NCBI GenBank assembly: GCA_003663045.1
Contig: QMZG01000001.1
Coordinates: 1-37,598, forward strand
Reading direction: 5' to 3'
DNA length: 37,598 bases
Source: Candidatus Altiarchaeales archaeon
GTDB lineage: Archaea; Altiarchaeota; Altiarchaeia; IMC4; QMZM01
This document shows, in pieces, positions 1 through 31,190 of the stretch (the stretch's first letter is position 1; every line of letters begins with the position of its first letter). The notes under the pieces are model-generated. The model was given only the letters and a program-made list of their open reading frames with translations. It had not been told where the DNA came from and ran no database searches. The position numbers were made by a program, and so were the translations under genes.

Positions 1-117
1 ATAATAATCCCTTTTAACCTTGTGTGCAGTGCCATAGCCTCCCGAGTAATCCCTGTTGACATCCATATTCGGGGGGCTGGGTAGATTCAGAATTAATATT
101 TTAACATTCTTTACCAT
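1..117 (-). CDS. 5' end of a gene running off the window (39 codons); N-terminus resembles B12-binding-domain radical SAM enzymes
   Basis: My own reverse-strand translation from the ATG at 117-115 gives MVKNVKILILNLPSPPNMDVNRDYSGGYGTAHKVKRDYY, open to the window edge. The pattern 'ILILNLPSPP...' is typical of class B radical SAM N-termini. Not in the ORF track because it is under 60 aa. Confidence 0.3.
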   Translation of the reverse strand, partial: MVKNVKILILNLPSPPNMDVNRDYSGGYGTAHKVKRDYY

Positions 118-190: not shown

Positions 191-1219
191 ATGTTTAAAA
201 TGGATGATTTAGCAGATAAAAAGTTTATATCTTTCATTATTATAACAAAAAATGAAGAGAAAAAAATCGGGGCATGTATCGAATCTGTATTAAAAGCCTC
301 AGAAAGATTTGATAGTGAGGTAATCCTTGTGGATTCTTTATCCAGCGATAAAACTATTGAAATAGCTAAAAGATATCCAATAAAAATTCTGCAATTGAAA
401 CCATATCAGGAGATATTCCCCTCTACAGCTCGTTACATTGGATTCAAATATTCAAGTGGAAGATATATACAATTCTTGGATGGAGATATGATACTGAACT
501 CACAATGGATTAATAATGCCATACCTATAATAGAAAAAAATGAAGGTATTGCTGGAGTGGCAGGTGGATTAACGCAGGATCAGACTAAAAGTCCCATGTT
601 GAAGCAATTTTCCAAATATTTAGAGGGCATGAGAGTTGATAAACCTGTGAAGGTTAGAAGTTTTGTAGGTATGTCATTGTTTAAATCAAGTGTACTACGG
701 GAGGTAGGTACCTTTGATCCCTACCTAATTGCTATAGAAGAGGGCGAACTATGTGATAGAATAACAGCAGCCGGTTATACGCTACTCTTGCTACCCTTCC
801 ATTCTGCCCATCATCAAGTTAGTAAGGAGTACAGTATTCTAAAAGAGCTGAAAAAGAAGATCAGATACACCATAGGTGAAGGACAGGTTTTTAGGAGATC
901 CACCTTTAATAAAAAAATTTTTCTTTTTCGTCTGGATTTATATAAATTTTATCTTATTTTTGCGGTACTGGAGATTCTGGGATTCATAGGTTTATCGACG
1001 CTCTCGGAAACAGATAAGGGACTATTTGGTTTTGTTTGGATTACGGTGGTGGTATTTTCATTACTCTGGGTTTTATTGGAGAAGAAAGGGGTATTTTATT
1101 CTGTAACAAGAACCCTGACGGCCTCACTGCTTTGGCCTGTCTTCTCTTATGGGTTTCTAAAGAGTGTAAAGAATCCAGACACGTATAACACAGATGTGTC
1201 TTTAATAAAAGAGTATTAA
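191..1219 (+). CDS. family 2 glycosyltransferase with C-terminal transmembrane segments
   Basis: N-terminal 'SFIIITKNEEKKI', 'VILVDSLSSDKT' and 'FLDGDM' (DxD) fit the GT-A/GT2 fold. The C-terminal ~100 aa are hydrophobic. Confidence 0.8.
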   Translation: MFKMDDLADKKFISFIIITKNEEKKIGACIESVLKASERFDSEVILVDSLSSDKTIEIAKRYPIKILQLKPYQEIFPSTARYIGFKYSSGRYIQFLDGDMILNSQWINNAIPIIEKNEGIAGVAGGLTQDQTKSPMLKQFSKYLEGMRVDKPVKVRSFVGMSLFKSSVLREVGTFDPYLIAIEEGELCDRITAAGYTLLLLPFHSAHHQVSKEYSILKELKKKIRYTIGEGQVFRRSTFNKKIFLFRLDLYKFYLIFAVLEILGFIGLSTLSETDKGLFGFVWITVVVFSLLWVLLEKKGVFYSVTRTLTASLLWPVFSYGFLKSVKNPDTYNTDVSLIKEY

Positions 1220-1245: not shown

Positions 1246-4200
1246 TCATGAATTTTCTTGTTTTATTATCCATATGCTGTTTTTTGGTAACACCTTTTTA
1301 GGGTTTAAGTCTGTATCGAATACCATCTCAACAGATTCCGTTGATGAGATATAGCTGAATATTACTTCTTTTTCGCCTGATTTTAACCCAATATCATTCC
1401 ACATCATAGGCATTGAAACAGAGGTGAATCTGAATTCCTGACCGTCGAAGCTGACATCCTTTATTGCCCCGTCAGACCAGGTTATCCTCGGTTCATCAAT
1501 TCCTTCACCCACATTCAGGATCAGTTCATGCTCCCCTCTATTCAGCTTCTCTGACAACACTACTATGCCATCGATATTATTTCTTATAAAGTATATCTCC
1601 TCTCCGTCAAGGTATGCGGAGGCTATTCTACGTCCAATAACCCTTATTCCTGCACCTCTTACTGGAACTTCATTGCTTAGTTTTATTTTTATGGTTCCAT
1701 TTCTGTAGTTTTTTTGCTCGTCTAGGCTCAAGTTCTGTACGTTAAGGTACTTGTAGGCATACGCGGGTAGGAATTGAGGGTGTATCTCTAAAAGACCGCC
1801 CGTGTCAAGGTCATTTAGTAAGGTCATTGTTTTGTTCCAGTTATTGAGGTTCTGGTGAAAGTCATAGTGGTGGTCATAGAAATAGTATGGGTATCCAATG
1901 TTGATATAACTATTGTATATGTCCAGTTTATCCATTCTCAGATTTTCTTCATCAAAACCTGTTATAAATCCTTTCGTAAATCCGCTGCCGTCAACTAGTG
2001 TTCCATTCGGGCCATAGTGCCTGCCCCATGTCAGTTCATGACTATTATCAAATGCGAAGGCTTCACTTCTGTTTTCCATATCCACGAGGATACCTACCCT
2101 CTCTATGGCGCTGGTAACATTATTGTTAACAGAATGTTGCGGGGTTGTCCAACAGTATGGCCTATAGCCGAAGAATTCCGTGTAGCTTTCATAGGCTGTT
2201 TTAACCCTGTTGTATACGGAATCGTAGCTAAACTGGGATCCATATCCATCTGAGTAGCCACCGGAATCATGCAAGCATGTTTGTATTCTCCTATCCTCTA
2301 TGTACTTTAACAGCATCTCTTTAAGGATGGAGTTTGTTTGGAACACAGAGTCTGCTCTGATATATATCTGGTGCGTGGATCTGGGGAATATATTTGTTAT
2401 ATCCTCTAGAAACTTTATGTGATACTTGTCTATGCTGCCGTTGATCAGCCATGGACCACCGGTATCATCTATTCTTATCCCCACATCCAGGCTTTCACCG
2501 AATGTTTTTTGTACACAACCCTCGCAGAGGTAGTATAGTATCCGCGTATTCAGTCTTCCTATGCCAATGTGGTATTGGTCCTTGGATCCAGTTATTCCAT
2601 CACCTCTCCCAGCATGTGCGATAATCTTGCCTTTCCCATATTCTCCATAGATCAACCATGGGCCCCATTCATCTGTCCCCATGATTCTTGCATTGATGAT
2701 GGGTTTGAAAAACTTAGGTAGTTTCTCATACCTCCAAAAATAGAACTGTGAATCCTCAGATGAAATGTTCTCATTCTTTGATTTGTATATGTAATCAGTA
2801 TCTCCAACTAATGCAGCTGGAAATATCTCTGATTCATTATTAAATCGAATCTCATGTGAAAAATTCCAACTCCCAGTGACATTGAATTCAGGACCTAAAA
2901 AATTAACTGTCGAAAAGTAGATAAAGAAAGCATTTGTGCCCCTCTTTATGGCATTCCATAATGCCTTCTTTTCAGTAGAGTTCAGAAGATCACTTCTGTC
3001 AAGTGTAGAGTCCAAGACTATTAAAGAATAGTCTCTCAGAATCTTGTCTTCATCTGGTAGGTCTTCTTTTTCCACATCCAGTAGGTCGTATTGAAAATTT
3101 CTGAGTGGTTGAGAATCCCAAAAAATCCCATACATCCAATTATCCCTACTAGAGCCCTTTGTCAGAACAAGTATCTTACCACCCATAACATCTGTTCTAA
3201 CACTCTTTTTTATGGGGTGTTTGGGTACTGCTATAATCTCATATATTGTTATCGCCTTGTTCTTGAAGATGCTGTCGAACTTGATGTCTTCTTCAAATTT
3301 CCCGATTTGCTTTTCGGTATAAATTCTATCAGAGAGGGCTACACTAGGTACTCTGGTCAGATACCTGTGGGTTACAATGTAGGTGATATTCCCAGCCCTT
3401 AGACTTTCCATAATTGATTCATTAATATAGTCTGATCCGAAAACCGCCATGGTTAGTTCCGGATTATACATATTAACGTTGGACATCCCAAATCCCCCCA
3501 ACGCGTCATAGATCAGACCATCACCAAGCACACTACCCCCTTTGTAATTATTTTTAAACCAGATACTTGCTTCATAAATATCAGGCGTTAAAAAAAGAGG
3601 ATTATCGCTGGATATAATCGATCTGTCGACGTAGTAGTAACGAAGTGAATTATTCATGATGTGGCCACCCCCCAAGAGTATAATCAATGACAGTGGGATG
3701 ACCATGTTTCTGTAGACTCTCCCCTTATCACCTATGGCTGTTATTCCGAGAAGTGCTATTGGTATGATACCAAGATAGGCGAATTCAAATATCCTGAGAA
3801 GTATAAAATAGTACCCTGTCGTCCATAAACTGACGGATGCAACCACTAGTGCAACACAGAAGATAAAGTTGATAACGAAAAACATTGGGATTTTTCTATT
3901 TTTATGCATGGATTCCTTTCTGAGAATTACTTCCAGACATTTTTTTGCACCTACTAGCGTATAAAATCCCATGATTATTATGGCACCATATATGAGGATT
4001 TTCTCGTAAGATCTGAAGCTTATTCCTGCTGATGATGGCCTGATCGAGTAACTAACTGGGGATAGGATACTTGGGAGGATCCTTCCTATATCTATCATCT
4101 GAGAGAATAGATATAGATTCGCGACATATACGCCCCATGAGAGAAACGCTACCAGAAAAAAGAGGAGATAGCTGCTTGATATATAGATGTATCTTTTTTG

Positions 4201-5025
4201 GTCAATGTTGTATTTGTTAAGGAATCTTTTTGAAATTTTCGAGGAAATAAATAATGCTATTATCCAGAACAGCCACACATATGCGGTGAAATGGTGGCTT
4301 AGAACCAGGATTAAACCGAAAATCAGGTTTACGATAATCAGGGATATGGTGGTGGTTTTCATTAATTTGACTGCAGTATAAAAGCTTATCAGGAGAAAGA
4401 TTATTGCGAATCCTTCATGGTGTATCCAGTTTATGAGTGAGGGGTTTGTGATGTAGAGGAATACAGCTAGCATAGCTAATTTTTCTTCTAAGAATTCACG
4501 GAAGATCAGGAATATCAATGAGGGTATTAAAAATAATCTCAGTAGAGGTAGTGTCCAGGGAAATATCTTGATTAATGGAATACCTGTCACCTTTGATACA
4601 GTTACAATGAAAATATGCATTGCCGGATAATGGGTGTATTGCTTTGCTATGCCAGTTGCTGCACTAACATTCCAGTGTTCATCTGAGTATACAATATTAC
4701 ATAACTGATAGGAATATATTGAATCCCTACCAACAGGATAACCATAGGTTGTAGAAAATAGAGGGTAAGTAAGAAGTACACATACCGAGAGTAAAGCAAC
4801 ACTAAATATTCTGATTTTTCTATTAACGTCCTGAAACAGTGAGGGGAGGGTAACAGATAGGATACCCAGCCAGTATATGACTTGGCTTGGAAGCTTGTTT
4901 AATGGAATTGGAACCTGATCGCTATTAGCGATTGCATTATTAAATAGGGATATGAAGTACATCAATAATAGAAATCCAATAATTACTGAGATGAATGATA
5001 TGCAATTAAGTATACCTTTATTCAT
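1246..5025 (-). CDS. 1259-aa fusion protein: polytopic N-terminal membrane domain (~460 aa, GT-C/polymerase-like) plus ~800-aa extracytoplasmic region with a NodB/CE4-like (polysaccharide deacetylase-like) segment
   Basis: Long uninterrupted ORF with about 12 or more hydrophobic helices in the first ~460 aa. The soluble part carries 'IRIDDTGGPW' (about 2455-2480), 'CLHDSGGYSDGYG' (about 2240-2280) and 'FFGYRPYCWTTPQH' (about 2134-2178). These resemble NodB motifs 1-3 (DD, H-x, RPY). Gene is firm; function is inference. Confidence 0.6.
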   Translation of the reverse strand: MNKGILNCISFISVIIGFLLLMYFISLFNNAIANSDQVPIPLNKLPSQVIYWLGILSVTLPSLFQDVNRKIRIFSVALLSVCVLLTYPLFSTTYGYPVGRDSIYSYQLCNIVYSDEHWNVSAATGIAKQYTHYPAMHIFIVTVSKVTGIPLIKIFPWTLPLLRLFLIPSLIFLIFREFLEEKLAMLAVFLYITNPSLINWIHHEGFAIIFLLISFYTAVKLMKTTTISLIIVNLIFGLILVLSHHFTAYVWLFWIIALFISSKISKRFLNKYNIDQKRYIYISSSYLLFFLVAFLSWGVYVANLYLFSQMIDIGRILPSILSPVSYSIRPSSAGISFRSYEKILIYGAIIIMGFYTLVGAKKCLEVILRKESMHKNRKIPMFFVINFIFCVALVVASVSLWTTGYYFILLRIFEFAYLGIIPIALLGITAIGDKGRVYRNMVIPLSLIILLGGGHIMNNSLRYYYVDRSIISSDNPLFLTPDIYEASIWFKNNYKGGSVLGDGLIYDALGGFGMSNVNMYNPELTMAVFGSDYINESIMESLRAGNITYIVTHRYLTRVPSVALSDRIYTEKQIGKFEEDIKFDSIFKNKAITIYEIIAVPKHPIKKSVRTDVMGGKILVLTKGSSRDNWMYGIFWDSQPLRNFQYDLLDVEKEDLPDEDKILRDYSLIVLDSTLDRSDLLNSTEKKALWNAIKRGTNAFFIYFSTVNFLGPEFNVTGSWNFSHEIRFNNESEIFPAALVGDTDYIYKSKNENISSEDSQFYFWRYEKLPKFFKPIINARIMGTDEWGPWLIYGEYGKGKIIAHAGRGDGITGSKDQYHIGIGRLNTRILYYLCEGCVQKTFGESLDVGIRIDDTGGPWLINGSIDKYHIKFLEDITNIFPRSTHQIYIRADSVFQTNSILKEMLLKYIEDRRIQTCLHDSGGYSDGYGSQFSYDSVYNRVKTAYESYTEFFGYRPYCWTTPQHSVNNNVTSAIERVGILVDMENRSEAFAFDNSHELTWGRHYGPNGTLVDGSGFTKGFITGFDEENLRMDKLDIYNSYINIGYPYYFYDHHYDFHQNLNNWNKTMTLLNDLDTGGLLEIHPQFLPAYAYKYLNVQNLSLDEQKNYRNGTIKIKLSNEVPVRGAGIRVIGRRIASAYLDGEEIYFIRNNIDGIVVLSEKLNRGEHELILNVGEGIDEPRITWSDGAIKDVSFDGQEFRFTSVSMPMMWNDIGLKSGEKEVIFSYISSTESVEMVFDTDLNPKKVLPKNSIWIIKQENS

Positions 5026-5031
5026 CGTATT

Positions 5032-6216
5032 CTATGATATCATTTCTTTTATAAGGCCTATATACTGCTCCTTTATAACATCATTACTAAATCTCTCCCT
5101 TATAGTAAGGACTGCGCTCTCTCTTAGTTTATCCAATGTATTTCCCCCCGAATTAAGAAGATCATGGATTTTATCCATAAAACCATTTTTATCATGATGG
5201 GGATTTATCAAAAATCCATTCACTCCATCATCTATTACCTCGGCTATACCACCCACATTCGTGCTTATAGGAACACAGCCGCAGGACATGGCTTCCAGCA
5301 ATACTGTGGGTATATTCTCATAGACCGAAGTTATCAGCAGGAAATCCGAAAGCGAATATACCTCTGGTAGGAGATCATTATCAACCCTGCCTAAAAAAAG
5401 AACCCTATCCTCTTCTATTCCATTAGTATAATCTTTAATAAATCTATCATCCTGTCTCATGCCGATTATGATAAATTTGACCCCATAATCTCTCATGTCA
5501 TTGATTATCTCAAATAGAAGCTCTGGATTTTTTATGGCGTGTGGTCTTCCCACCCATACCCCTAGTAAATTGTCTCCTTTAAAATCTTTAATTTTTTTAC
5601 CTATCCCTGAGTCTATTTCACTATACCTTTTTCTATTAAAGAAATCAGGATCTATGGAATTATAAATGACTTCAATCTTACCTTTATCGATACCATAGTT
5701 ATTAACTATACTATCTTTTGTATAATGACTGATGGCTATGATCCTATCTGCTTTTTTCATCATAGCCCTTTCACCTCTCACCAAGATTCTCCCCAATCTA
5801 GAACACATAAGTCTTTCACTGTATTCCTTTCCCTTCAGATTACTTATGGCAGATATCTGGTCATTGAGTACACATTCACTCACAATTAATTCAGGAATTC
5901 TACTATTATAAAGGTGAAAATAAAACGGTGGGAGATTTTTTATCACTAACTTTGGTTGTTCTTTATCTGTTTTTAAATGAAGAAAAGAAATCAATTCAAA
6001 GAGTGGATTAAACTTATCAAAACCTGGAAAAGATTTAACTATAGACTTTATTTTCAAATTAGGGTGTTGAAACACGGTAAGCCCTTCACTCTTGTTGTTA
6101 GTATATACCTCTACTCTAAATCCTTTTTCCAGAAGAAATTTTATCCTTTTCAAAGCATTAATGCCGATGCCACCATATCCCAATTCCGGAGAAAGAACCA
6201 ATATCTTTGAATTCAT
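5032..6216 (-). CDS. GT4-type (GT-B fold, group 1) glycosyltransferase
   Basis: C-terminal 'ENIPTVLLEAMSCGCVPISTNVGGIAEVIDDGVNGFL' is the canonical GT1/GT4 E-x7-E region. It overlaps the upstream gene by 4 nt (6213-6216). Confidence 0.85.
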   Translation of the reverse strand: MNSKILVLSPELGYGGIGINALKRIKFLLEKGFRVEVYTNNKSEGLTVFQHPNLKIKSIVKSFPGFDKFNPLFELISFLHLKTDKEQPKLVIKNLPPFYFHLYNSRIPELIVSECVLNDQISAISNLKGKEYSERLMCSRLGRILVRGERAMMKKADRIIAISHYTKDSIVNNYGIDKGKIEVIYNSIDPDFFNRKRYSEIDSGIGKKIKDFKGDNLLGVWVGRPHAIKNPELLFEIINDMRDYGVKFIIIGMRQDDRFIKDYTNGIEEDRVLFLGRVDNDLLPEVYSLSDFLLITSVYENIPTVLLEAMSCGCVPISTNVGGIAEVIDDGVNGFLINPHHDKNGFMDKIHDLLNSGGNTLDKLRESAVLTIRERFSNDVIKEQYIGLIKEMIS

Positions 6217-7394
6217 TGTTTATACCTTCTTGTTCCCTCTATCTTCTCCCAGGAGTAGGAGGGTCCTCTAAATATGTATGTGAAAAGCCCTTTCAGGCAG
6301 GAGTATTGTGAATGAAGAAACGTAATGATGATATATCGGCTTTTTGACATTATACTTAGCAATAGGAGAGCGGTCAATAATATAAGTGCTACATGAATAT
6401 GTAATGAAAAAAATGTTAAAAAGAATAGAAGTATTAAAAAAGGGGATATGACATGCATAAAAAATTCTATTGGGAATATCAACATCCCGAATAGTCCATA
6501 ATTTCTATTGAAGAAAAATACTTTGAAAAATCTGAGGAATAACTGAATTAAACCCTGTGCCCTCCTATACTTCTGTTTTGTTCTTTCTTGCATACTGGAC
6601 GCTGCAAATTCCCAGAAGATTGCATCATCTACATGTATTGTCCTATAACCTTTTTGTCTGATCCTCAATGCAATTTCGGAATCGTCTGCTACAGAATCAT
6701 TATATATCCTGCTTATGAGGGTCTTTCTGAAGGCAGTAAATGGACCATTAAAGATAAATGTTGAATCAAGTATAGACTCAGCATGACGTATCATGTGATA
6801 AAGATTCCTGTATTCAATCTCAATTATGGACATATCACTATCTCTATCACCCAGAACTACGTGCCTACCTGTCAGAGCACCAACTCTCTGATCAGCAAAA
6901 TAGGGAATTGAAACATTCAGGATGTTCTTATTTAGTCTGGAATCAGAGTCTGTTATTACTATAATCTCACCATTGGAGTATCTAAGAGCACGATTTAGTG
7001 CGACGGCTTTGCCCCTTCGTTCCTTTAATTTAAGTAATTTAAAATTACGGTGGTTTTTTATAAATCCTTTAACAATTTCAACCGTTTTGTCATTAGAGCC
7101 GTCATCTATTATAAGGACTTCGAGTTTGTCTTTTGGATATTCCAAATCAAGGGTATTCTCTAATTTTCCTTTAATAGTATTCTCCTCATTCCAGGTGGGG
7201 ATAATAAGGGAGATAGTTGGTTCATAATCTGGATCACTTCTAACATCTAACTTTCTATAGGATACTATGTACTGGCATAATAGAAAGTAACCCCCATATA
7301 CTATACCTATACTCAATATACTGAACCAGAATATTATCTCAGCCAAACTCATTTTTATCTTATTTGAGACAATCAATTCTAAGAAATCAGACAC
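6213..7394 (-). CDS. membrane-integrated processive-type GT2 synthase (PgaC/IcaA/NodC/chitin- or cellulose-synthase-like)
   Basis: Motifs are 'IIPTWNEE', 'LIIDDGSNDKT', 'ITDSDS' (DxD), 'ADDSE', and 'QKYRRAQG' in the position of Q(R/Q)xRW. There is an N-terminal TM helix and C-terminal TM helices. Confidence 0.75.
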   Translation of the reverse strand: MSDFLELIVSNKIKMSLAEIIFWFSILSIGIVYGGYFLLCQYIVSYRKLDVRSDPDYEPTISLIIPTWNEENTIKGKLENTLDLEYPKDKLEVLIIDDGSNDKTVEIVKGFIKNHRNFKLLKLKERRGKAVALNRALRYSNGEIIVITDSDSRLNKNILNVSIPYFADQRVGALTGRHVVLGDRDSDMSIIEIEYRNLYHMIRHAESILDSTFIFNGPFTAFRKTLISRIYNDSVADDSEIALRIRQKGYRTIHVDDAIFWEFAASSMQERTKQKYRRAQGLIQLFLRFFKVFFFNRNYGLFGMLIFPIEFFMHVISPFLILLFFLTFFSLHIHVALILLTALLLLSIMSKSRYIIITFLHSQYSCLKGLFTYIFRGPSYSWEKIEGTRRYKQ

Positions 7395-7397
7395 AAT

Positions 7398-9143
7398 TCA
7401 CAACCTGTCATATACCTTAATATTGGCCTCTTCGGCGATCCTCTTAGCCTCTGGGTTCTTTATAAAAAGTCTGGCTTTTAATTGCTTCGCCAAGGCAATG
7501 GACTCAGCACTATTGTCATCTAAGCCCTTTGAGATCAGTTCATTGACAAAGTTCCAGTCTTTAATCCAGACGATCTCCACCTTTCCCTGATCTATAAATT
7601 TCTTAAGCCTTCTCAATTTTCTGCTGGTACCGGCTACAATATATGGGTTCCTTTTATTTATAAAATCCTCTAATTCATCACCTTTAATATCCTTTAGGAA
7701 ATCCATTGCTGCTACATATCTCCTCTTTTTGTGCATATAGAAGAATAACAAAGCTAATAAGAAGAGTATTATGAACAGCATTACTATCCCTCCCGGGCTT
7801 CTGGAAAATGCAACTATGTAACCAATTACCCCCACTGGAGTACAGGGCTTACATGGACCACCACAGTCAATACCTCCCTCACCCTGATTCTGAATCCCAT
7901 CAGAGCATGTTGGTATCCTGCAGGTATTATTGTAACAATAATTACTTAAGCAGTCTGAATTCACCAAGCACCTTTTACCTTCACCACAGGGTTTACAAGG
8001 ACCTCCACAGTCTATGTCTGTTTCATCCTGATTTAGTATTTCATCATAGCATGTTGGTATCCTGCAGATATTTTCATAGCAATAATTACTTAAGCAGTCT
8101 GAATTCACCAAGCACCTTTTACCTTCACCACAGGGTTTACAAGGACCTCCACAGTCTACATCACTTTCATTCTGATTCTTTACTCCATCAGAACAGGTTG
8201 GTGTTCTGCATACATTATCATAACAAACACCACTTAAACAATCTGAATCTACCATGCATTTTTTACCATCGCTACAAGGATCACAAGGACCTCCACAGTC
8301 TACATCACTTTCATTCTGATTCTTTACTCCATCAGAACAGGTTGGTGTTCTGCATACATTATCATAACAGTATCCGCTTTTACAATCTGAATCCGTAAGA
8401 CAGGATTTACCATCTTCGCAGGGTTTACAGGGGCCTCCACAATCTACATCTGTTTCACCATAGTTCTTTATACCATCATAACATGCAGATATTACCCTGC
8501 CTTTTCTGGGAGGATAAGTTCCACGGCCCCTACGATGTTTCTTCACCGTGGTAGTTGTGGTACTAGTTGTGGTAGTTGTAGTCGTTGGCACAGTTGTTGT
8601 TGTGGCAGTTGATATAGTGGTTGTTGTAGTACTTGTGGTAGTTGTAGTAGTGACGCATACCACCTCAAATTCTGTGTCTGCGGTAAAGGTTTTACATCCA
8701 GAGGAAACTATAATCCTTGCTGTATATTCTTCTTTTTCATTAATGCAATCCTCTGGCAAATTCCATAGAATTTCATAGTCGATAGTGTTACCACCACCAT
8801 AGGCATAGCAATTTTCGGGATTGGACTCGGTTACAGTTACATCCAGATCACAATTCCCATATTCTGGATAGTATCCATAATGTTTGGGCAGGGAACAACT
8901 TAAATGAACCCGATTATCTATATCTAAGTTTACATCGTCTACCTGCTCGCATTCTGTAAGCTCTACGGTAGCGTCAAAGGTCACTATTTCTCCTGGAGAA
9001 TAGGTTTTCTTGTCACTGTCTATAGAAACCGATATGTCTGCAGAGGATAACGAAGTCAGAAAGATCAAGATGATGGTTACTATAAATACAGATCTCAAAA
9101 TCCCACCAAAAATGTTCACACCACCCATTTTTATTACCCTCAA
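7398..9143 (-). CDS. type I membrane surface protein: signal peptide, beta-rich N-domain, poly-Thr linker, 4.5 Cys-rich 48-aa repeats, TM helix, ~115-aa cytoplasmic alpha/beta tail
   Basis: Signal-like 'FIVTIILIFLTSLSSADIS'. Thr run 'VTTTTTTSTTTTTISTATTTTVPTTTTTTTSTTTTT'. Repeats follow 'C(S/Y)DGxxNxxExDxDCGGPCxPCxxGKxCxxxSDCxSxxCYxNxCRxPT'. TM 'IVMLFIILFLLALLFFYM' is followed by 'HKKRR'. An alternative start is Met-6 (9128). Confidence 0.8.
   Translation of the reverse strand: MRVIKMGGVNIFGGILRSVFIVTIILIFLTSLSSADISVSIDSDKKTYSPGEIVTFDATVELTECEQVDDVNLDIDNRVHLSCSLPKHYGYYPEYGNCDLDVTVTESNPENCYAYGGGNTIDYEILWNLPEDCINEKEEYTARIIVSSGCKTFTADTEFEVVCVTTTTTTSTTTTTISTATTTTVPTTTTTTTSTTTTTVKKHRRGRGTYPPRKGRVISACYDGIKNYGETDVDCGGPCKPCEDGKSCLTDSDCKSGYCYDNVCRTPTCSDGVKNQNESDVDCGGPCDPCSDGKKCMVDSDCLSGVCYDNVCRTPTCSDGVKNQNESDVDCGGPCKPCGEGKRCLVNSDCLSNYCYENICRIPTCYDEILNQDETDIDCGGPCKPCGEGKRCLVNSDCLSNYCYNNTCRIPTCSDGIQNQGEGGIDCGGPCKPCTPVGVIGYIVAFSRSPGGIVMLFIILFLLALLFFYMHKKRRYVAAMDFLKDIKGDELEDFINKRNPYIVAGTSRKLRRLKKFIDQGKVEIVWIKDWNFVNELISKGLDDNSAESIALAKQLKARLFIKNPEAKRIAEEANIKVYDRL
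7838..8486 (-). repeat. tandem 144-bp (48-codon) coding repeats, 4.5 copies, inside the surface-protein gene
   Basis: Two perfect DNA identities lie at offset 144: 7936-8014 = 8080-8158 (~79 nt) and 8147-8225 = 8291-8369 (~79 nt). The match 7907-7923 = 8051-8067 has the same offset. Confidence 0.9.
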
Positions 9144-9229
9144 AGTACTAAATTACACTCAATATATGGATTTTATTATACAATATTTATAGATTATATG
9201 GAATTTATAGTATAAATATCAATTTTTTG

Positions 9230-9374
9230 ATATTTAAATAATAAAAACATAATTAATATAATTAAACTATAATCAAAATTTAAAACCTAAATAGTTCATA
9301 TTTAAATAATAAAAACATAATTAATATAATTAAACTATAATCAAAATTATAATCAAAATAATCTATAGTTCATG
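9230..9374. repeat. imperfect tandem duplication (~68-nt period) in a divergent promoter region, each copy carrying a palindromic TATA-like element
   Basis: 9230-9280 and 9298-9348 are identical (51 nt). Each copy starts with 'tatttaaata', which is its own reverse complement and contains 'tttaaata' (9233-9240, 9301-9308). Both units end in 'atagttca'. A nested 12-nt duplication 'ataatcaaaat(t/a)' lies at 9337-9360. Confidence 0.85.
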
Positions 9375-9637: not shown

Positions 9638-10504
9638 CTAAGACATGAAAAATGGCGCGATCAGAAATAGAATAATATTGGTAATCCCATGGGATAGTGT
9701 TATGCCCCAGATATTTCTGGTTCTCTGAAATACATATCCATAGAAAAGCCCCACGAGGAACACAAAGATAAGATCTGGGGCAGATTTAAAGCCGATGTGC
9801 ATCAACATAAACAGAACACTGGAGAATAATAAGCTGGCATTTTTCCCCATCACCCCCTCAGCCCTGGTCTGTACAATCCCCCTGAAGGTCAATTCCTCTA
9901 AGAGACCTGTGAATATCAGTAAAATAAACCCGGGAATGATTAAATTCATTACTATTAATTCATCAATCAACGCCTCTGGCTTCAGGATCATGTACTCAAA
10001 AAATCCAAAGAGAATTCCGGTCAATGCTATAAAAAACTGAATTAATGGAAAATTAGAAACAAAGCCTATATCCTGTAAATGCATCTTCATGTATCTGATA
10101 AGAAGGATTATTGCCACCGTGAGAGGAATCCCAATAATAATAAACCAATAAATGCTCTCAAATATCTTCAATGGCATGGAAAATCTGATTATTCCAATCA
10201 ATGGAATCAGGATCAATGAGTTCAACATATATGACATATCCTCAATCTGCCATGCCCTTCTCAATGAATATGCCCTGGTTCTAATAGATTCACGATAGAT
10301 CAGTGATGAAAAAATCATCAATGAAAAGAGAAATATCATGTGTATCAGAATCCCCAACATAATGTCAAAATAGGTAGAAACAAACTCTGCCGACCCCACC
10401 ATAATGTAGGTAAATAATGGAACAATAAACCTGAGATTAATCCCAGAAACCTTTCCATTCCACTCGTCTTTTTTCTCTAAATCCCCTTTTTCTCCTTTTC
10501 CCAT
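9638..10504 (-). CDS. CPBP-family (CAAX/Abi) intramembrane glutamic endopeptidase
   Basis: Motifs 'LLEELTFRG', 'FSSVLFMLMH' and 'LSHGITN' in a polytopic membrane protein. Confidence 0.8.
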   Translation of the reverse strand: MGKGEKGDLEKKDEWNGKVSGINLRFIVPLFTYIMVGSAEFVSTYFDIMLGILIHMIFLFSLMIFSSLIYRESIRTRAYSLRRAWQIEDMSYMLNSLILIPLIGIIRFSMPLKIFESIYWFIIIGIPLTVAIILLIRYMKMHLQDIGFVSNFPLIQFFIALTGILFGFFEYMILKPEALIDELIVMNLIIPGFILLIFTGLLEELTFRGIVQTRAEGVMGKNASLLFSSVLFMLMHIGFKSAPDLIFVFLVGLFYGYVFQRTRNIWGITLSHGITNIILFLIAPFFMS

Positions 10505-25322: not shown

Positions 25323-26588
25323 ATGTACAGAAGTTATGAAGAGATGCCCAAGATCAGGTTGCCTCATGGCCAAGAGATAAAGATTTCAGACTCTACCATA
25401 AGAGATGGTTCTCAGATGCCTGGCATAGTGATGACCAGAAAGCACAGACTAAGAATTTATGAATATCTTCATGAGATCGGAATAGAAAAACTGGAGTGCT
25501 TTCTCTATAATCAAAGAGATAAGGATGTAGCAAGGGAGATGCTAAATATTGGTTATGAATTCCCGGAGGTTACTGGATGGGCCCGTTCTAACAGAGATGA
25601 CATAGACCTAGTTCTTAAAATGGATGGGATTAAAGAGACGGGAATACTTATGTCGGTCTCAGACACCCATATCTTTGATAAACTTGGCTTGAAAAGCAGG
25701 GAAGATGCCGAGAAAAAGTATCTTGATGCTTTACAGTATTCGATAGATCATGGCTTGAAGGTGAGATGTCACCTGGAGGATCTGACGAGGGCAGATTGGG
25801 AAGGCTTCATAATCCCATTTGTCAAAAAAATTATTTCAATAGACAAGGATGCAATCATCAGAATCTGCGATACTCTTGGCTTGGGAATACCATTTCCAGA
25901 GGCCGAGCTTCCCTATGGAATTCCAAGGATGGTTCGGGAATTAAAAAGGATCGGCGTTAGAAATATTGAGACACATACCCATGACGACTTTGGTTTGGGG
26001 GTTGCAAATTCTCTTGCTGGCTACTGGTATGGGGCAAACTGGTCTAACCTCACTTTCCTTGGAATTGGGGAAAGGGCAGGGAATTCGGAACTGGAAAAAA
26101 TTCTGATATTTTTCATAACCAGGGTGGATGGATTTGAGAAATACAATCCAGAAAAATTGACGGAATTTGCTCGATATATGGAAAAAGAGGTAAGGATTCA
26201 TGTTCCTCGAAACAAAGCAATAGTTGGTGAGAATATCTTTGCTCATGAATCTGGAATTCATACCGCTGGGGTTATAAGAAATCCATTCACCTATGAACCA
26301 TTTCCTCCAGAGTTGGTGGGTGGGAAGAGAAGGTTAATGGTGGGTGATTCCTCTGGAAAGGATGTGATAAGACAAAAGGTAGAGGAAGTAGCAGAAAGAC
26401 TGATGGGGCTAAAGGTTAAAGTAGAGAAGGATGATCCAAGGATTCAAGAAATCTATAAGGATATTCACAGATTGTATGACGAAGAAGGTAGAAGATCAGC
26501 TATCTCAGACGATGAAATAAAGAAGTATGTAGAGAAATATTTCCTATTTGAGCCGGTGATTGATGAGGTTAAGGTCGAAGAAAACTAA
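25323..26588 (+). CDS. HMGL-like acyl-CoA:2-oxoacid condensing enzyme (isopropylmalate / homocitrate / citramalate / Re-citrate synthase family)
   Basis: 'ISDSTIRDGSQMPG' and 'ETHTHDDFGLGVANSLAG' (metal-binding HxH) fit the DRE-TIM fold. Substrate cannot be assigned from sequence by eye. Confidence 0.7.
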   Translation: MYRSYEEMPKIRLPHGQEIKISDSTIRDGSQMPGIVMTRKHRLRIYEYLHEIGIEKLECFLYNQRDKDVAREMLNIGYEFPEVTGWARSNRDDIDLVLKMDGIKETGILMSVSDTHIFDKLGLKSREDAEKKYLDALQYSIDHGLKVRCHLEDLTRADWEGFIIPFVKKIISIDKDAIIRICDTLGLGIPFPEAELPYGIPRMVRELKRIGVRNIETHTHDDFGLGVANSLAGYWYGANWSNLTFLGIGERAGNSELEKILIFFITRVDGFEKYNPEKLTEFARYMEKEVRIHVPRNKAIVGENIFAHESGIHTAGVIRNPFTYEPFPPELVGGKRRLMVGDSSGKDVIRQKVEEVAERLMGLKVKVEKDDPRIQEIYKDIHRLYDEEGRRSAISDDEIKKYVEKYFLFEPVIDEVKVEEN

Positions 26589-27648
26589 AATGCAAGTTGC
26601 ATGGATTTCGGATTCATTTGAGCAGATTAATGGAGTCTCGACATATATAAAAAACATCCTGCCTCTCCTGAACAAACAACTGGATATCAAATTATTTACA
26701 GGAAGGGTCACCAATGATTATGAATTCCCAGTTTTTTCTATGCCCCACATCTCCTTCCCCTTTCTGCCAGAATACGATATAATCTCCCCTTTTTTTAAAA
26801 AGATTGATGCGAATCTCATTCATGTTCATAGTGCATATCTCTTGGGATTGCGTTCATCAAGGCTGGATATGAAAAAAATTGTAACTACTCATTTTCACCC
26901 ATACAATTTTTTGGAATCCTTTTTTGGACAGAATCAGCCGAAGATATTTCGAGATCTGATGTGGAGATACATAATATGGTTCCTGAATCAATTCGATATC
27001 GTGATAACTCAGACCAGGGCAAAGGAAAAGACATTCAAAACCCAGGGTCTGAAAACAAGGATCGAGGTAGTACCCAACGGGATGGATATGTCCAAATCAA
27101 TTGAACATACAGAATTGAAGGTTGATTTTAGAAAGAAGTTTGGTATCAGGGGCGATTTCGCATTATTTCTTGGACGTTTGGATGCATCAAAGAGGCCAGA
27201 TTGGGTTATAGAGGTTGCTAAAAGACTCCCTCACAGACAGTTTGTTATCATAGGTAGGGGGACACTGGAGAAGAAGTTACCCCATCCAAAAAATGTCCAT
27301 TTCATCAGGGAGTATATCTCGGCGGAAGATAAGATCGGTGCTTATCACTCCGCTTCAATGATACTGATGCCTTCAGCCGTTGGTGTTGAGATGGAGGGTC
27401 TTGTTGCTCAGGAAGCGATGCTCTGCAAGACGCCCGTACTGCACTCAGATGATGATGTTCTTAACGAGGTAGTTGGAAAGGGGGGTATCGCATGTAGATC
27501 TATTGAAGAGCTAAAAGAAAAAACCGAACTTCTATTTGAGGATAATGAGCTTCGAGAAGAATTGGGGGAACGCGCACTGGAGGCAGTTGGTAAAAGAGAC
27601 ATCAACAAATCTGTTGAAAAATTAATAAAGATTTATGATTCTCTATAA
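26560..27648 (+). CDS. GT4-type glycosyltransferase
   Basis: 'GRLDASKRPD', 'MILMPSAVGVEMEGLVAQEAMLCKTPVL'. The likely true start is the ATG at 26590 (MQVAWISDSF), 1 nt after the upstream stop. Confidence 0.8.
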   Translation: MMRLRSKKTKMQVAWISDSFEQINGVSTYIKNILPLLNKQLDIKLFTGRVTNDYEFPVFSMPHISFPFLPEYDIISPFFKKIDANLIHVHSAYLLGLRSSRLDMKKIVTTHFHPYNFLESFFGQNQPKIFRDLMWRYIIWFLNQFDIVITQTRAKEKTFKTQGLKTRIEVVPNGMDMSKSIEHTELKVDFRKKFGIRGDFALFLGRLDASKRPDWVIEVAKRLPHRQFVIIGRGTLEKKLPHPKNVHFIREYISAEDKIGAYHSASMILMPSAVGVEMEGLVAQEAMLCKTPVLHSDDDVLNEVVGKGGIACRSIEELKEKTELLFEDNELREELGERALEAVGKRDINKSVEKLIKIYDSL

Positions 27649-27673
27649 GGCAATAATAACATAGACAGATAAG

Positions 27674-28735
27674 ATGATCAAGAAATCTATCATATCTTTT
27701 TTAATTGGCATAGGTATAATTGTTTTGGTATTGTACATCGTGGACTTTAACGAGGTTGTCCCTCAGATTCAACAATTGTCTCTGGGATATTTCTTATTAT
27801 TGCTTTTAATAGAGTTGATTTCAATTGTTTTATCTGCATTGAAGTGGAGATTGATACTACGTTCATTTCATGTACCCATGAAGGATATACTACCCACAAT
27901 ATTTGTCGGCTATCTGGTGAACAATATAACCCCCATGGGTTTTGCCGGAGGTGAACCGGTTCGTGCATGTATCATATCAAAGAAGAGGAATATTCCATTA
28001 ACGAGCTCTGCTGCGAGTGTGATTGTAGATCTCTTTTTAGAGATATTCCCAATGTTCCTCCTGAGTGGGATAGCGATCTACCTAGTTTTCATGAGTGGAA
28101 TTCCCATAGAAATCGCAATATTCTTGGGAATCATCTCTCTGACATTATCCATACTGTTTTTTATATCAATAACCTTAGTAATGAATAAAAATTTTTCCCT
28201 GAAGGTGATTCAGATATTTATTGAAATCATATCAAGAATTCCGATCTTAAAAATCTATTCGCAAAAACTGAGAGAGGATGTAAATGAGATATGTGATAAA
28301 TTTAACTACGCTATGAGAAGGCATATGATGGACCCCCATGTCCTATTTTTCGGAACCCTTATCTCCTCCTTCGTTTGGGGCCTAAGGTTGTTGAGGACGT
28401 ATGTGGTTTTCATAGCCCTTGGCTATCCTGTTTCAATAGATACCGTAATAGTGGTGGAAATTGCCGTGTCCGTACTTTCATTCTTGCCACTCCTTCCCGG
28501 ATCACTGGGGATATGGGAAGGTGCTAGTGTCATGTTTTTCGTACTGGCGGGTGTAGATAAGGCCTATGCTATGTCGGCTACGCTAATAGACAGGGTCCTT
28601 TTCTATCTGATCCCGTCCATCATTGGTATCATCTCTGCATTGTATCTGGGCATTAGTGTCTCAAGGCTGGTGAGTGAGAAGATCGGAGATGATAAGATAG
28701 AACTGGAGAAATTGTCGAAAATTATAGGTTCCTGA
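27674..28735 (+). CDS. flippase-like / UPF0104 (lysylphosphatidylglycerol-synthase TM-region) membrane protein
   Basis: Polytopic, with 'ITPMGFAGGEPVRA' and 'LPLLPGSLGIWEG', characteristic of this family. Confidence 0.7.
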   Translation: MIKKSIISFLIGIGIIVLVLYIVDFNEVVPQIQQLSLGYFLLLLLIELISIVLSALKWRLILRSFHVPMKDILPTIFVGYLVNNITPMGFAGGEPVRACIISKKRNIPLTSSAASVIVDLFLEIFPMFLLSGIAIYLVFMSGIPIEIAIFLGIISLTLSILFFISITLVMNKNFSLKVIQIFIEIISRIPILKIYSQKLREDVNEICDKFNYAMRRHMMDPHVLFFGTLISSFVWGLRLLRTYVVFIALGYPVSIDTVIVVEIAVSVLSFLPLLPGSLGIWEGASVMFFVLAGVDKAYAMSATLIDRVLFYLIPSIIGIISALYLGISVSRLVSEKIGDDKIELEKLSKIIGS

Positions 28736-29825: not shown

Positions 29826-31190
29826 ATGAATCCTTCAATATTCCGTGCATACGATATCCGGGGGATTTTTGGTAAAGATCTGACAGAGGAAACTGCGGAG
29901 AGGATAGGAAAGGCATTTGGAACCTATGTTGATGGGGGGGACATAGTAGTGGGAAGGGACTGCAGATTGAGCTCTCCCGTACTTATGGATTCCCTAATTA
30001 AAGGACTGATCTTTACCGGTTGTAATGTGACAAACATAGGAATGGTTCCCACCCCCGTACTTTATTTCTCTCTCGTTCATTACAAAAAGGATGGTGGCAT
30101 CATGATTACTGGATCCCATAATGCTCCACAGTATAATGGCTTCAAGATCTGTAAGGGGTCGCATACACTTTATGGAGACGAGATTCGGGAGATTGGAGAG
30201 ATAGCAGAATCTGAGGATTTTAAGAGAGGTAAGGGGAGGGTTGAAGAGATGAATGTACTGAAGGATTATCTAAATTTTATCAAAGAAAGAATCGAGATCG
30301 AAAAGGAACTGAAGGTTGTGATAGATGGTGGAAATGGAACCGCTGGGAAGCTGGCATCAAAACTCTTCGGGGATTTGGGCTGCGAGGTAACAGAACTCTA
30401 CTGTGAGCCAGATGGAAATTTCCCCAATCATTTTCCAGATCCCACCATAGATGAAAATCTGATGGATCTAATCTCCTTAGTTAGGGATGAAGGTGCAGAT
30501 ATGGGAATCGCTTTTGATGGGGATGCCGACAGACTTGTCATAGTTGATGACACCGGAGAGATAATTAGGGGGGACCAGACCTTGATTCTTTTTTCCAGAG
30601 AGATCTTGAAGGAAAGGAAAAATGCAAAGATAATCTTTGAAGTGAAGTGCTCTCAAGCATTAATAGAGGATATAAAACAGCACGGTGGGATCCCAATAAT
30701 GTACAGAACGGGACATTCATTCATAAAGAAAAAGATGAAAGAGGAGAATGCTTTATTAGCTGGTGAGATGTCCGGACACTTCTTCTTTGCAGATAACTAT
30801 TATGGCTACGATGATGGAATCTTTGCTGCCGTGAGAATGGCCCAACTGCTTTCAAAAAGTAAGGAAAAACTATCGGAGATGATAGCAAAAATTCCCCATT
30901 ACTATTCCACACCAGAGATAAGGATTCATTGCCCGGAAGATGAGAAGTTTAAAATCGTGGAGAAAATAACGGAAAAATTTCAAATGGATTATGATGTAAT
31001 TAAAGTTGATGGGGCAAGGATCCAGTTTGATGATGGCTGGGGTTTAGTGAGGGCATCTAACACAGAACCGGCACTAATTCTGAGATTTGAGGCAAAAAAT
31101 AGGAAGAGGGTGGAAGAGATTAGAGAAATAATTATGGATGAATTAAAAAAGTTTCCTTCTGTAGCAAGGGGATTGGATGTTGTAAAATAG
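29826..31190 (+). CDS. phosphomannomutase / phosphoglucomutase / phosphoglucosamine mutase (alpha-D-phosphohexomutase)
   Basis: Active-site 'ITGSHNAPQYNGFK', Mg site 'FDGDADR', sugar loop 'GEMSGHFFF'. Confidence 0.9.
   Translation: MNPSIFRAYDIRGIFGKDLTEETAERIGKAFGTYVDGGDIVVGRDCRLSSPVLMDSLIKGLIFTGCNVTNIGMVPTPVLYFSLVHYKKDGGIMITGSHNAPQYNGFKICKGSHTLYGDEIREIGEIAESEDFKRGKGRVEEMNVLKDYLNFIKERIEIEKELKVVIDGGNGTAGKLASKLFGDLGCEVTELYCEPDGNFPNHFPDPTIDENLMDLISLVRDEGADMGIAFDGDADRLVIVDDTGEIIRGDQTLILFSREILKERKNAKIIFEVKCSQALIEDIKQHGGIPIMYRTGHSFIKKKMKEENALLAGEMSGHFFFADNYYGYDDGIFAAVRMAQLLSKSKEKLSEMIAKIPHYYSTPEIRIHCPEDEKFKIVEKITEKFQMDYDVIKVDGARIQFDDGWGLVRASNTEPALILRFEAKNRKRVEEIREIIMDELKKFPSVARGLDVVK

Follow-up and report, generated by a model that had tools for sequence, protein, structure and literature searches.

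A predicted GT-C glycosyltransferase fused to a divergent deacetylase-like module in a putative surface-glycan cluster of an uncultured archaeon

Introduction

Among the systems described so far, those closest to the locus considered here encode a membrane glycosyltransferase of family GT2 together with a glycosyltransferase of the GT-C fold. The AglD, AglR and AglS proteins of Haloferax constitute a three-component extracytoplasmic glycosylation system, comprising a polyprenyl-phosphate-sugar synthase, a flippase and a GT-C enzyme (PMC3871713), and in a bacterial three-component system, that of GT136, the GT-C enzyme carries a C-terminal carbohydrate-binding module (CBM) that binds the substrate (PMC11127046). 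A different logic, that of synthase plus deacetylase, is represented by the PgaC/PgaB and IcaA/IcaB systems for poly-N-acetylglucosamine (PNAG) and by chitosan-type systems. It was to this logic that a first-pass annotation, made from the sequence alone, assigned four minus-strand genes in a stretch of 37,598 nucleotides (nt) from Candidatus Altiarchaeales archaeon (contig QMZG01000001.1), which as a whole is referred to here as the window. The four genes encode a surface protein, a membrane GT2, a GT4 and a protein of 1259 amino acids (aa), the last being the main subject of this paper. Our analysis leads away from the PNAG comparison, and we think it somewhat more probable than otherwise that the locus belongs to an archaeal surface-glycan cluster that varies between strains and works via a lipid carrier, and that it is not a processive synthase system.

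Results and discussion

The N-terminal half of the 1259-aa protein has a predicted GT-C fold

The hydrophobic segments of the 1259-aa protein (gene at 1246-5025) end at residue ~457, the rest of the protein being soluble. Neither the whole protein nor any of three sub-regions has a sequence match in Pfam, NCBIfam or the Protein Data Bank (PDB). An AlphaFold model of residues 1-605, built on an alignment of 53 relatives, reached a predicted local distance difference test score (pLDDT) of 92.3 and a predicted template modelling score (pTM) of 0.92; it consists of about 13 helices up to residue ~457 and a small external alpha/beta domain at ~470-600. A Foldseek comparison of this model with the PDB yielded 18 matches with E from 1.6e-8 to 1.4e-3, all of which are GT-C enzymes, the next match appearing only at E 0.19. 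The matches include STT3 of the human and yeast oligosaccharyltransferases (1.6e-8, TM-score ~0.5), DPY19, PglB, AftA and ArnT. By its predicted fold, the region from residue 1 to ~600 is a GT-C glycosyltransferase of the GT-C_A class. Since the polytopic domain is of this kind, a lipid-carrier pathway is indicated for the locus, not a synthase-dependent one.

The sole invariant column in the alignment of relatives is Asp101 (motif PVGRDSIY, codon 4723-4725), which is present in 53 of 53 sequences. This residue lies between predicted helices 86-91 and 100-115, past three transmembrane (TM) helices, and the topology of the predicted model would place it in an external loop, facing outward. Conservation in at least 41 of the 53 relatives was also noted for Y130, P134, F210, H244, H245, R411, R462, W489 and D502. 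The module thus resembles STT3/AglB/PglB, DPY19, ArnT and AftA in its predicted fold, in the succession of a polytopic N-terminal part and an external soluble domain, and in having an acidic residue (here the invariant Asp101) in an external loop. It differs from them in lacking a sequence match to any curated GT-C family, with TM-scores of ~0.5, and in bearing an extra extracellular module of ~650 aa, which none of these enzymes has. Membership in the AglB/STT3 family itself was considered and rejected, as there is no WWDYG motif (no WW[DE][YFW]G in residues 1-605) and no family match.

To delimit the family we rely on a profile search that covered 1.84 billion representative proteins (50% clustering level) and in which 273 proteins matched the profile of the 1259-aa protein at E up to 1e-3. 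Nearly all of the 150 matches listed cover only profile positions 1-~530 (residues ~72-600), and most of these are standalone proteins of 560-680 aa; the exceptions are the orthologue P0002, the protein P0063 discussed below, and P0147, which is a repeat artefact (here and below, P and L numbers denote the proteins and loci compared with the window). The GT-C family would accordingly be one whose members are usually unfused. Some relatives weakly match the Pfam families DUF2206 (six proteins), PMT_2 (four) or DUF6541 (three); literature searches for DUF2206 and DUF6541 turned up nothing. The first-pass annotation had delimited here a multi-TM domain of ~460 aa; the conserved module runs to ~600, not 460, and its GT-C nature had not been recognised.

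The fused extracellular module is probably a divergent relative of CE4 deacetylases

The C-terminal ~650 aa appear, from sequence comparisons, to be a separate extracellular module that also exists in a standalone form as the membrane-anchored proteins P0063 and P0152. Among the matches listed, P0063 (656 aa, with an N-terminal membrane anchor) is, besides the orthologue, alone in covering the C-terminal half (E 2e-17). A word-indexed search with the whole 1259-aa protein found only itself and one orthologue, and the use of P0063 as the query added only P0152, a protein of 801 aa with PKD domains and a PGF-TM-basic tail that is 49% identical to P0063 and aligns with the C-terminal half of the window protein with 105 bits over 584 residues. 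One and the same region of P0152 passes the Pfam cut-offs for Polysacc_deac_1 (34.3 vs 23.1), DUF2334 (27.6 vs 26) and GH57 (28.4 vs 21.2), and P0063 has sub-threshold matches to Polysacc_deac_1 and DUF2334. On the basis of this transitive homology, the (beta/alpha) barrel of the fused module is probably a divergent member of the superfamily that unites carbohydrate esterase family 4 (CE4) with DUF2334, and a putative deacetylase-superfamily domain is therefore found where the first-pass annotation had pointed. At the end of P0152 itself (L010, 2913-5318), ...APGFPYES is followed by a hydrophobic stretch and then by basic residues, an ending that resembles a PGF-CTERM archaeosortase signal; its neighbours in L010 are a cellulase with a faint dockerin match and a gene with a weak polysaccharide-lyase match.

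The motifs of the barrel are IRIDDTG (850-856), CLHDSGG (917-923), CWTTPQHS (958-965), VDMENR (981-986) and YFYDHHY (1048-1054). A NodB-like stretch had been proposed at nt 1990-2560 (residues ~822-1012), and IRIDDTG, CLHDSGG and CWTTPQHS do lie there, with YFYDHHY just beyond. The barrel keeps the DD of motif 1 (D853 and D854) and the first His of motif 2 (H919), whereas the Asp-His-His triad and the motif-3 Arg are incomplete. In an hhalign comparison with the canonical CE4 protein of locus L001, H919 falls on the first His of HSxxH and WTTPQH on FRAPMF; the same comparison with the canonical CE4 of a sister allele was not significant (E 0.22). An alignment of the four available sequences of the C-terminal module, which are only ~25% identical, has as invariant residues R851, D853, D854, G856, W859, H919, W959, T961, Q963 and H964, as well as D982, E984, R986, F1049, H1052 and Y1054. 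Two of these, H964 and H1052, might substitute for the missing CE4 residues.

Structure prediction contributes less to this part of the protein. A fold search with the low-confidence model of the C-terminal half gave scattered weak CE4 matches (E 0.01-0.07) and one ThuA-like protein, which is weak corroboration at most. The domain preceding the barrel (residues ~601-845) may tentatively be assigned a flavodoxin/ThuA-like fold, with one weak ThuA-like fold match (E 0.04) from the same low-confidence model, and the region following it (~1076-1259) is shared with P0002 and, in part, with P0063 and P0152. When the C-terminal alignments were compared as profiles with the PDB, no relevant match resulted, and a metagenome scan found no relatives of the module.

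The membrane GT2 and the GT4 of the operon

The GT2 was taken in the first-pass annotation to have the layout of a membrane-embedded polymer synthase, and the motifs on which this was based are indeed in place. IIDDGS (95-100, with DDG at 97-99), TDSDS (148-152, with DSD at 149-151) and VADDSE (235-240, with ADD at 236-238) align with the D, DxD and catalytic-base D motifs of BcsA and PcManGT, VADD pairing with VTED of Escherichia coli BcsA. QKYRRAQG (274-281; QKYRR 274-278) aligns with QRIRWARG of BcsA and thus stands at the QxxRW position, but the Trp is here an Arg, and processivity is not clear. In processive synthases this Trp stacks on the acceptor sugar, as established for BcsA.

The best solved relative found in a PDB search is 6YV7-9 (E 1.2e-40 over residues 48-290, 143 bits), that is, the membrane mannosyltransferase PcManGT of Pyrobaculum calidifontis (PMC12595478, PMC10569066), while E. 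coli BcsA was matched at E 2.7e-20. According to PMC10569066, PcManGT has three TM helices, and the title of the paper devoted to it (Gandini et al. 2020) is cited in PMC8993221. The window GT2 likewise has few TM helices: a hydrophobicity scan marks two segments, an N-terminal one at 15-33 and a C-terminal one at 331-349, and more hydrophobic stretches are seen by eye beyond residue ~298. Both proteins have the RRAQ version of QxxRW (RIRRAQ in PcManGT), and their identity is roughly 40% by a hand count of the alignment, which concerns the catalytic domain only; they differ in the first Gln of QxxRW, which is kept in the window protein and is a Trp in PcManGT. The latter, a transferase, reportedly depends on GDP-mannose, dolichyl phosphate and Mn. 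In NCBIfam, the window GT2 comes closest to PgaC_IcaA (TIGR03937), with 141.4 bits vs a cut-off of 422.3 (E 3.9e-41, residues 20-364), followed by CelA and NodC. We consider the protein a membrane GT2 of the cellulose-synthase/PgaC-like clade that is not clearly a processive synthase. For the neighbouring GT4, no NCBIfam equivalog reaches its cut-off.

The fusion, its orthologue and a sister allele

Among the matches listed from the profile search, P0002 alone matches the profile over its full length. It is a full-length orthologue of the 1259-aa protein (51% identity) from a different sample, and the 1259-aa product itself is found in an identical form on four independently assembled metagenome contigs; because of these two facts the genes can be regarded as real, not as chance open reading frames (ORFs). 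Judging from the sequences compared, the fusion of a GT-C enzyme with a CE4-like domain would be rare and new, the kind of system it belongs to being ordinary.

In the orthologous locus L001 the genes for the GT2 (32% identity), the GT4 and the fused GT-C (46-56%) follow one another in the same order. Beyond the fused GT-C gene come genes for a GT4, a canonical CE4, a second GT2, a B12 radical-SAM protein and a Wzx-like flippase. The cluster in the window is likewise larger than the four genes. The GT2 gene convergent with the operon (191-1219) has a 39%-identical homologue inside L001 and belongs to the same cluster, and the radical-SAM gene at 1-99 is cut at window position 1, so the glycan cluster extends past the window. 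A CPBP protease gene upstream of the operon (9638-10504) is probably another member: it may belong to the system because a 41%-identical copy sits inside the GT-C cluster L012. Its product has a sub-threshold match to Mrt-type C-terminal sorting proteases (MrtJ, 42 bits vs a cut-off of 75). The coordinates of all these features are given in table 1.

Table 1. Features of the locus, in the order of their position in the window.
Feature	Position (nt)	Strand	Basis of assignment
B12-binding radical-SAM gene, N-terminus only	1-99	-	70% identity over 33 aa to the L001 radical-SAM protein
Second GT2, 342 aa, C-terminal TM segments	191-1219	+	Pfam Glycos_transf_2; convergent with the 1259-aa gene
1259-aa protein, C-terminal mostly beta domain, residues ~1076-1259, then stop	1246-1800	-	Secondary structure of low-confidence model
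1259-aa protein, putative divergent CE4/DUF2334-like (beta/alpha) barrel, residues ~846-1075	1801-2490	-	Pfam matches of homologue P0152
1259-aa protein, linker and first domain, residues ~601-845	2491-3225	-	Homology to standalone P0063 and P0152; alternating beta/alpha (GGKILVLT...)
1259-aa protein, predicted GT-C glycosyltransferase module, residues 1-~600	3226-5025	-	AlphaFold model and Foldseek
Cytoplasmic GT4 (GT-B), 394 aa, no TM segment	5032-6216	-	Pfam Glycos_transf_1 and Glyco_transf_4
Membrane GT2, 393 aa, GTG start, cellulose-synthase-like/PcManGT-like	6213-7394	-	Pfam Glycos_transf_2 and Glyco_trans_2_3
Type I membrane surface protein, 581 aa from TTG 9143	7398-9143	-	Sequence features; no family match
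CPBP/Rce1-like intramembrane protease, upstream of the operon	9638-10504	-	Pfam Rce1-like

The ORF listing confirms both the coordinates and the tight packing of the four minus-strand genes reported in the first-pass annotation, successive genes being 3 nt apart (7395-7397), overlapping by 4 nt (6213-6216) and 6 nt apart (5026-5031). From this spacing we infer that they form a tight operon. A scan for promoters and terminators of the bacterial type, which is uninformative for an archaeon, found no terminator-like site on the minus strand. The intergenic region upstream of the operon, where transcription diverges, contains at 9227-9348 an AT-rich direct repeat of 54 nt in two copies, 98% identical and 68 nt apart, each with TTTAAATA-like boxes; this repeat stretch is the only part of lower identity (85%) in the flank shared with the sister allele described next.

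The same environment yielded a second version of the locus. In four sister contigs (L006 and L020-L022), the sequence agrees with that of the window at 99-100% identity between positions 13020 and ~4640. This stretch holds the genes for the CPBP protease, the surface protein, the GT2 and the GT4, together with a Na/Ca exchanger gene, a small ORF and the part of the GT-C gene that encodes the first ~130 residues. Below ~4640 the identity drops to ~70% (~4600 to 3290), and below 3290 the similarity is absent altogether. There is, in other words, a sharp recombination breakpoint inside the GT-C gene between the window and the sister allele. The GT-C protein of the sister allele (P0003) has 603 aa and is unfused; it is followed on the opposite strand by an ORF of 388 aa (GNAT-like by eye), then by a membrane-anchored canonical CE4 with the motifs TFDDG and HTVTH, and then, at the contig end, by a Wzx-like fragment. 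Between the last two lies a 264-aa ORF in the orientation of the GT-C gene, a methyltransferase by eye. A separate canonical CE4 is thus encoded in both comparable loci, in L001 beside the fused module and in the sister allele without any fusion.

One of the sister contigs, L006 (QNBN01000133.1, 7.7 kb), is included in a metagenome-assembled genome labelled 'Spirochaetes bacterium', and a bacterial origin was accordingly considered. We judged the label a probable binning error because the window encodes a geranylgeranylglyceryl phosphate (GGGP) synthase scoring above the curated cut-off (TIGR01769, 221 bits vs 161.6), two PAC2 proteasome-chaperone proteins and a prefoldin-like protein. The same genes bear out the archaeal context that the first-pass annotation had assumed.

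Neighbourhoods of more distant GT-C relatives

The surroundings of more distant members of the GT-C family were surveyed in loci L012-L019 and L024-L028. GT4 genes adjoin the GT-C homologue in most related loci, and genes for Wzx-type proteins (Polysacc_synt) are found in L001, L013, L014, L015, L020 and L028. Homologues of Exosortase_EpsH occur in L013, L014, L018, L019 and L028, Rce1-like/CPBP proteases in L012 and L013, and B12 radical-SAM genes in L001 and L012. Extracellular carbohydrate-active enzymes are also encoded near the GT-C gene: a GHL15 gene overlaps its start in L012, a GH39 gene occurs in L013, and CE4 genes have been mentioned above. Because the GT-C family is recurrently paired with an external enzyme of this sort (CE4, GHL15 or GH39, and by fusion in the window), the gene neighbourhoods suggest that the glycan, once transferred, undergoes editing outside the cell.

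In having GT-C relatives among GT4s, a flippase, an exosortase homologue and CPBP proteases, these loci resemble Wzx-dependent loci and loci of the exosortase/PEP-CTERM type. The window shares with them the CPBP protease and the glycosyltransferase genes, whereas in the window itself neither an exosortase nor a Wzx gene was found. As to the gene-neighbourhood check that the first-pass annotation had called for, the order of GT2, GT4 and fused GT-C is kept in L001, and the surface protein was not found, in the loci compared, beyond the population of the window.

The surface protein

That the first gene of the operon encodes a membrane protein with Cys repeats had been noticed already, and the details agree. 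The start is more likely ATG 9128, which is preceded by GAGGGT, than the TTG given in table 1. A signal/TM segment (residues 11-29) is followed by an N-terminal domain (~36-162), a mucin-like linker rich in Thr and Ser (163-201, nt 8541-8657; 31 of 39 residues are Ser or Thr), a region of four full 48-aa eight-Cys repeats and one half repeat (221-434, nt 7842-8483), a TM segment (452-470) and a tail of 111 aa (nt 7401-7733), labelled as cytoplasmic. No Pfam, NCBIfam or PDB family matches the protein above threshold, and the other GT-C loci examined, those outside the window's own population, yielded no homologue. No recognisable C-terminal sorting signal was seen: the TM segment and the HKKRR after it resemble the end of such a signal, yet 111 more residues follow the membrane segment. 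The tail has no family or PDB match, and its C-terminal part (NSAESIALAKQLKARLFI, AKRIAEEANIKVY) resembles by eye sequences of the PIN/DUF3368 type. On the plus strand, opposite the Cys-repeat region, an ORF of 196 aa (7808-8398) reflects the tandem repeat of 144 nt; most likely it is an artefact of the repeat, not a gene.

A lipid-carrier pathway and the alternatives to it

A lipid-carrier pathway fits the locus because the GT2 and the GT4 belong to the cytoplasmic face, the GT-C enzyme would have its catalytic loop outside, and flippases are encoded in related loci. We propose that the PcManGT-like GT2 and the GT4 would load dolichyl phosphate with a sugar or a short oligosaccharide at the cytoplasmic face, where the second GT2 and perhaps the radical-SAM enzyme may extend or modify the lipid-linked glycan, which would then be flipped across the membrane by a Wzx-type flippase such as those of the related loci. 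The GT-C domain, for which the fold and the invariant Asp101 speak directly, would use this residue in transferring the glycan to an acceptor outside, and the fused CE4/DUF2334-like module, placed in its superfamily by homology, may deacetylate, trim or hold the product beside the transferase. The acceptor could be a surface glycan polymer or a glycoprotein, one candidate, by virtue of its adjacency, being the presumably co-transcribed Thr-rich surface protein.

The scheme has much in common with the AglD/AglR/AglS and GT136 systems introduced above. A membrane GT2 and a GT-C enzyme are encoded together in all of them, Wzx-type (AglR-like) flippases are present in loci related to the window, and the GT136 enzyme, like the window protein, has a substrate-directed extra domain fused at the C-terminus of its GT-C part. 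This domain is a CBM in GT136 but CE4-like in the window, and the GT2 is of the DPM1/GtrB type in the described systems but of the cellulose-synthase-like/PcManGT type here. Unlike the three-component systems, the window also has a GT4, the presence of which suggests an oligosaccharide donor, and no flippase gene was found in it.

Several observations weigh against this pathway. The missing flippase gene is one of them, the cluster being cut at the window edge, and the rarity of the gene combination is another: among the loci compared, a membrane GT2 accompanies the GT-C gene only in the window, in L001 and in the sister allele, L027 having no more than a weak match. The GT2 scores alike against the PgaC/IcaA model (141 bits, over nearly its full length) and PcManGT (143 bits), and because of this equal similarity processive synthesis has to be kept in consideration. 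As to the fused module, its barrel region has no Pfam match even at E 10, its hhalign match to the canonical CE4 of L001 has an E of 3e-4 and a probability of 39%, its CE4 motif 2 has no second His (LHDSGGY), Thr961 stands at the position of the motif-3 Arg, and the model of the C-terminal half, with a pLDDT of 38.8 on a 3-sequence alignment, is unusable. The assignments of sugar, donor and acceptor stay proposals.

The explanation closest to the first-pass annotation is a synthase-dependent exopolymer system, in which the GT2 would polymerise and export a polymer of the N-acetylglucosamine type, the external domain would deacetylate it and the polytopic part would serve as a channel or partner. 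It has in its favour that the best NCBIfam match of the GT2 is PgaC_IcaA, with CelA and NodC coming next, that the alignment of this protein with BcsA extends over both the catalytic and the membrane regions and keeps the D, the DxD, the catalytic D and the Q..R, that a putative CE4-superfamily domain is fused within the same operon, and that canonical CE4 genes are found again in the sister allele and in L001. The PgaC/PgaB and IcaA/IcaB operons do, after all, likewise combine a membrane GT2 of the same clade with an external domain of the CE4 superfamily. The differences, however, go deeper than these likenesses. The window GT2 stays far under the PgaC/IcaA cut-off (141 vs 422 bits) and has Arg for the Trp of QxxRW; its closest solved relative is a mannosyltransferase with three TM helices (PMC10569066); the deacetylase-like domain, with its incomplete CE4 motif set, is fused to a predicted GT-C transferase with an invariant external Asp; and the GT4 of the operon and the Wzx-type genes of related loci indicate a lipid-linked route. 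L001 and the sister allele, in addition, have a CE4 of their own. PNAG systems, to our knowledge, lack a GT-C transferase, and the known synthase systems have no need for one. We therefore find the 'synthase plus deacetylase' analogy unsupported for this operon and hold a synthase-dependent exopolymer to be unlikely.

A protein-glycosylation cassette, in which the GT-C enzyme would modify the presumably co-transcribed surface protein at O-linked sites in its Thr-rich linker or at its few N-linked sequons, with a donor made by the GT2 and the GT4, shares the lipid carrier with the pathway we prefer and differs in the acceptor. The mucin-like run of 31 Ser/Thr in 39 residues, encoded in a gene only 3 nt from the GT2 gene, makes this attractive, as do the top fold matches of the GT-C module, STT3, DPY19 and PglB being protein-modifying enzymes, the weak PMT_2 matches of four members of the family, and the fact that the surface gene and the glycosyltransferase genes are kept together in the sister allele. 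But the sister allele is 98-100% identical in this part and so provides no independent evidence, no homologue of the surface protein turned up in the other GT-C loci examined, the GT-C module has neither a WWDYG motif nor an STT3 Pfam match, and its relatives sit in GT4-rich clusters with Wzx and exosortase homologues that resemble polysaccharide loci. All in all, such a cassette seems rather unlikely, and distinctly unlikely, in our view, is its most specific form, a self-contained O-glycosylation cassette in which the GT-C enzyme would decorate the Thr-rich linker from a dolichol-linked donor made by the GT2 and the GT4 and the CE4-like domain would edit the attached glycan. The enzymes of archaeal O-glycosylation have not been identified to date (PMC8241124). 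A further alternative concerns the C-terminal module alone, which could be a pseudo-CE4 domain that binds or scaffolds the acceptor glycan for the GT-C enzyme, not an enzyme itself. This would account for the loss of the second metal-binding His of motif 2 and for Thr961 at the place of the motif-3 Arg, as well as for the retention of a separate canonical CE4 beside the fused module in L001; a GT-C enzyme with a substrate-binding C-terminal CBM is on record (PMC11127046), and CE4 pseudoenzymes such as BA3943 are among the weak fold matches of the low-confidence model. Against it stands the invariance of D853, D854, H919, H964, D982, E984, R986 and H1052 at ~25% identity: because these residues are kept at such a distance, a conserved active or metal site is suggested over a mere binding surface, and we deem a purely binding module quite improbable. 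The lipid-carrier pathway, as outlined above, is the interpretation we retain.

Other features of the window

Outside the locus, three further regions of the window may be mentioned. At 26560-28735 (+), a GT4 gene, whose product has its weak best match among synthases of lipoteichoic acid-anchor or diacylglycerol glycolipids (IagA/BgsA, E 2e-23, 83 bits vs a cut-off of 460), adjoins a gene for a membrane protein of the LPG_synthase_TM family, possibly forming a separate membrane-glycolipid module. A phosphoglucomutase/phosphomannomutase and a GlmU-like sugar-1-phosphate nucleotidyltransferase with hexapeptide repeats, encoded at 29826-31190 and 33006-34226 (+), may supply sugar nucleotides. 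Finally, an ORF of 175 aa at 34774-35301 (-) has a short sub-threshold match (36 bits) to the C-terminal part of IS66-family transposases and may be a remnant of such a gene.

Conclusions

The N-terminal part of the 1259-aa protein introduces a GT-C family for which there is no Pfam or NCBIfam model and for which we found no literature; it has ~270 representatives and recurs in archaeal glycan clusters with Wzx flippases and exosortase homologues. By the fusion described here, glycan transfer and glycan editing would be put on one extracellular polypeptide. The coexistence, in the same population, of the fused allele and one that encodes an unfused GT-C and, separately, a canonical CE4 offers a natural comparison; this allele pair suggests that transferase and deacetylase act jointly and that surface variation has a hotspot here. 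The locus is a concrete candidate for steps of archaeal surface glycosylation, including O-glycosylation, that have so far remained unassigned.

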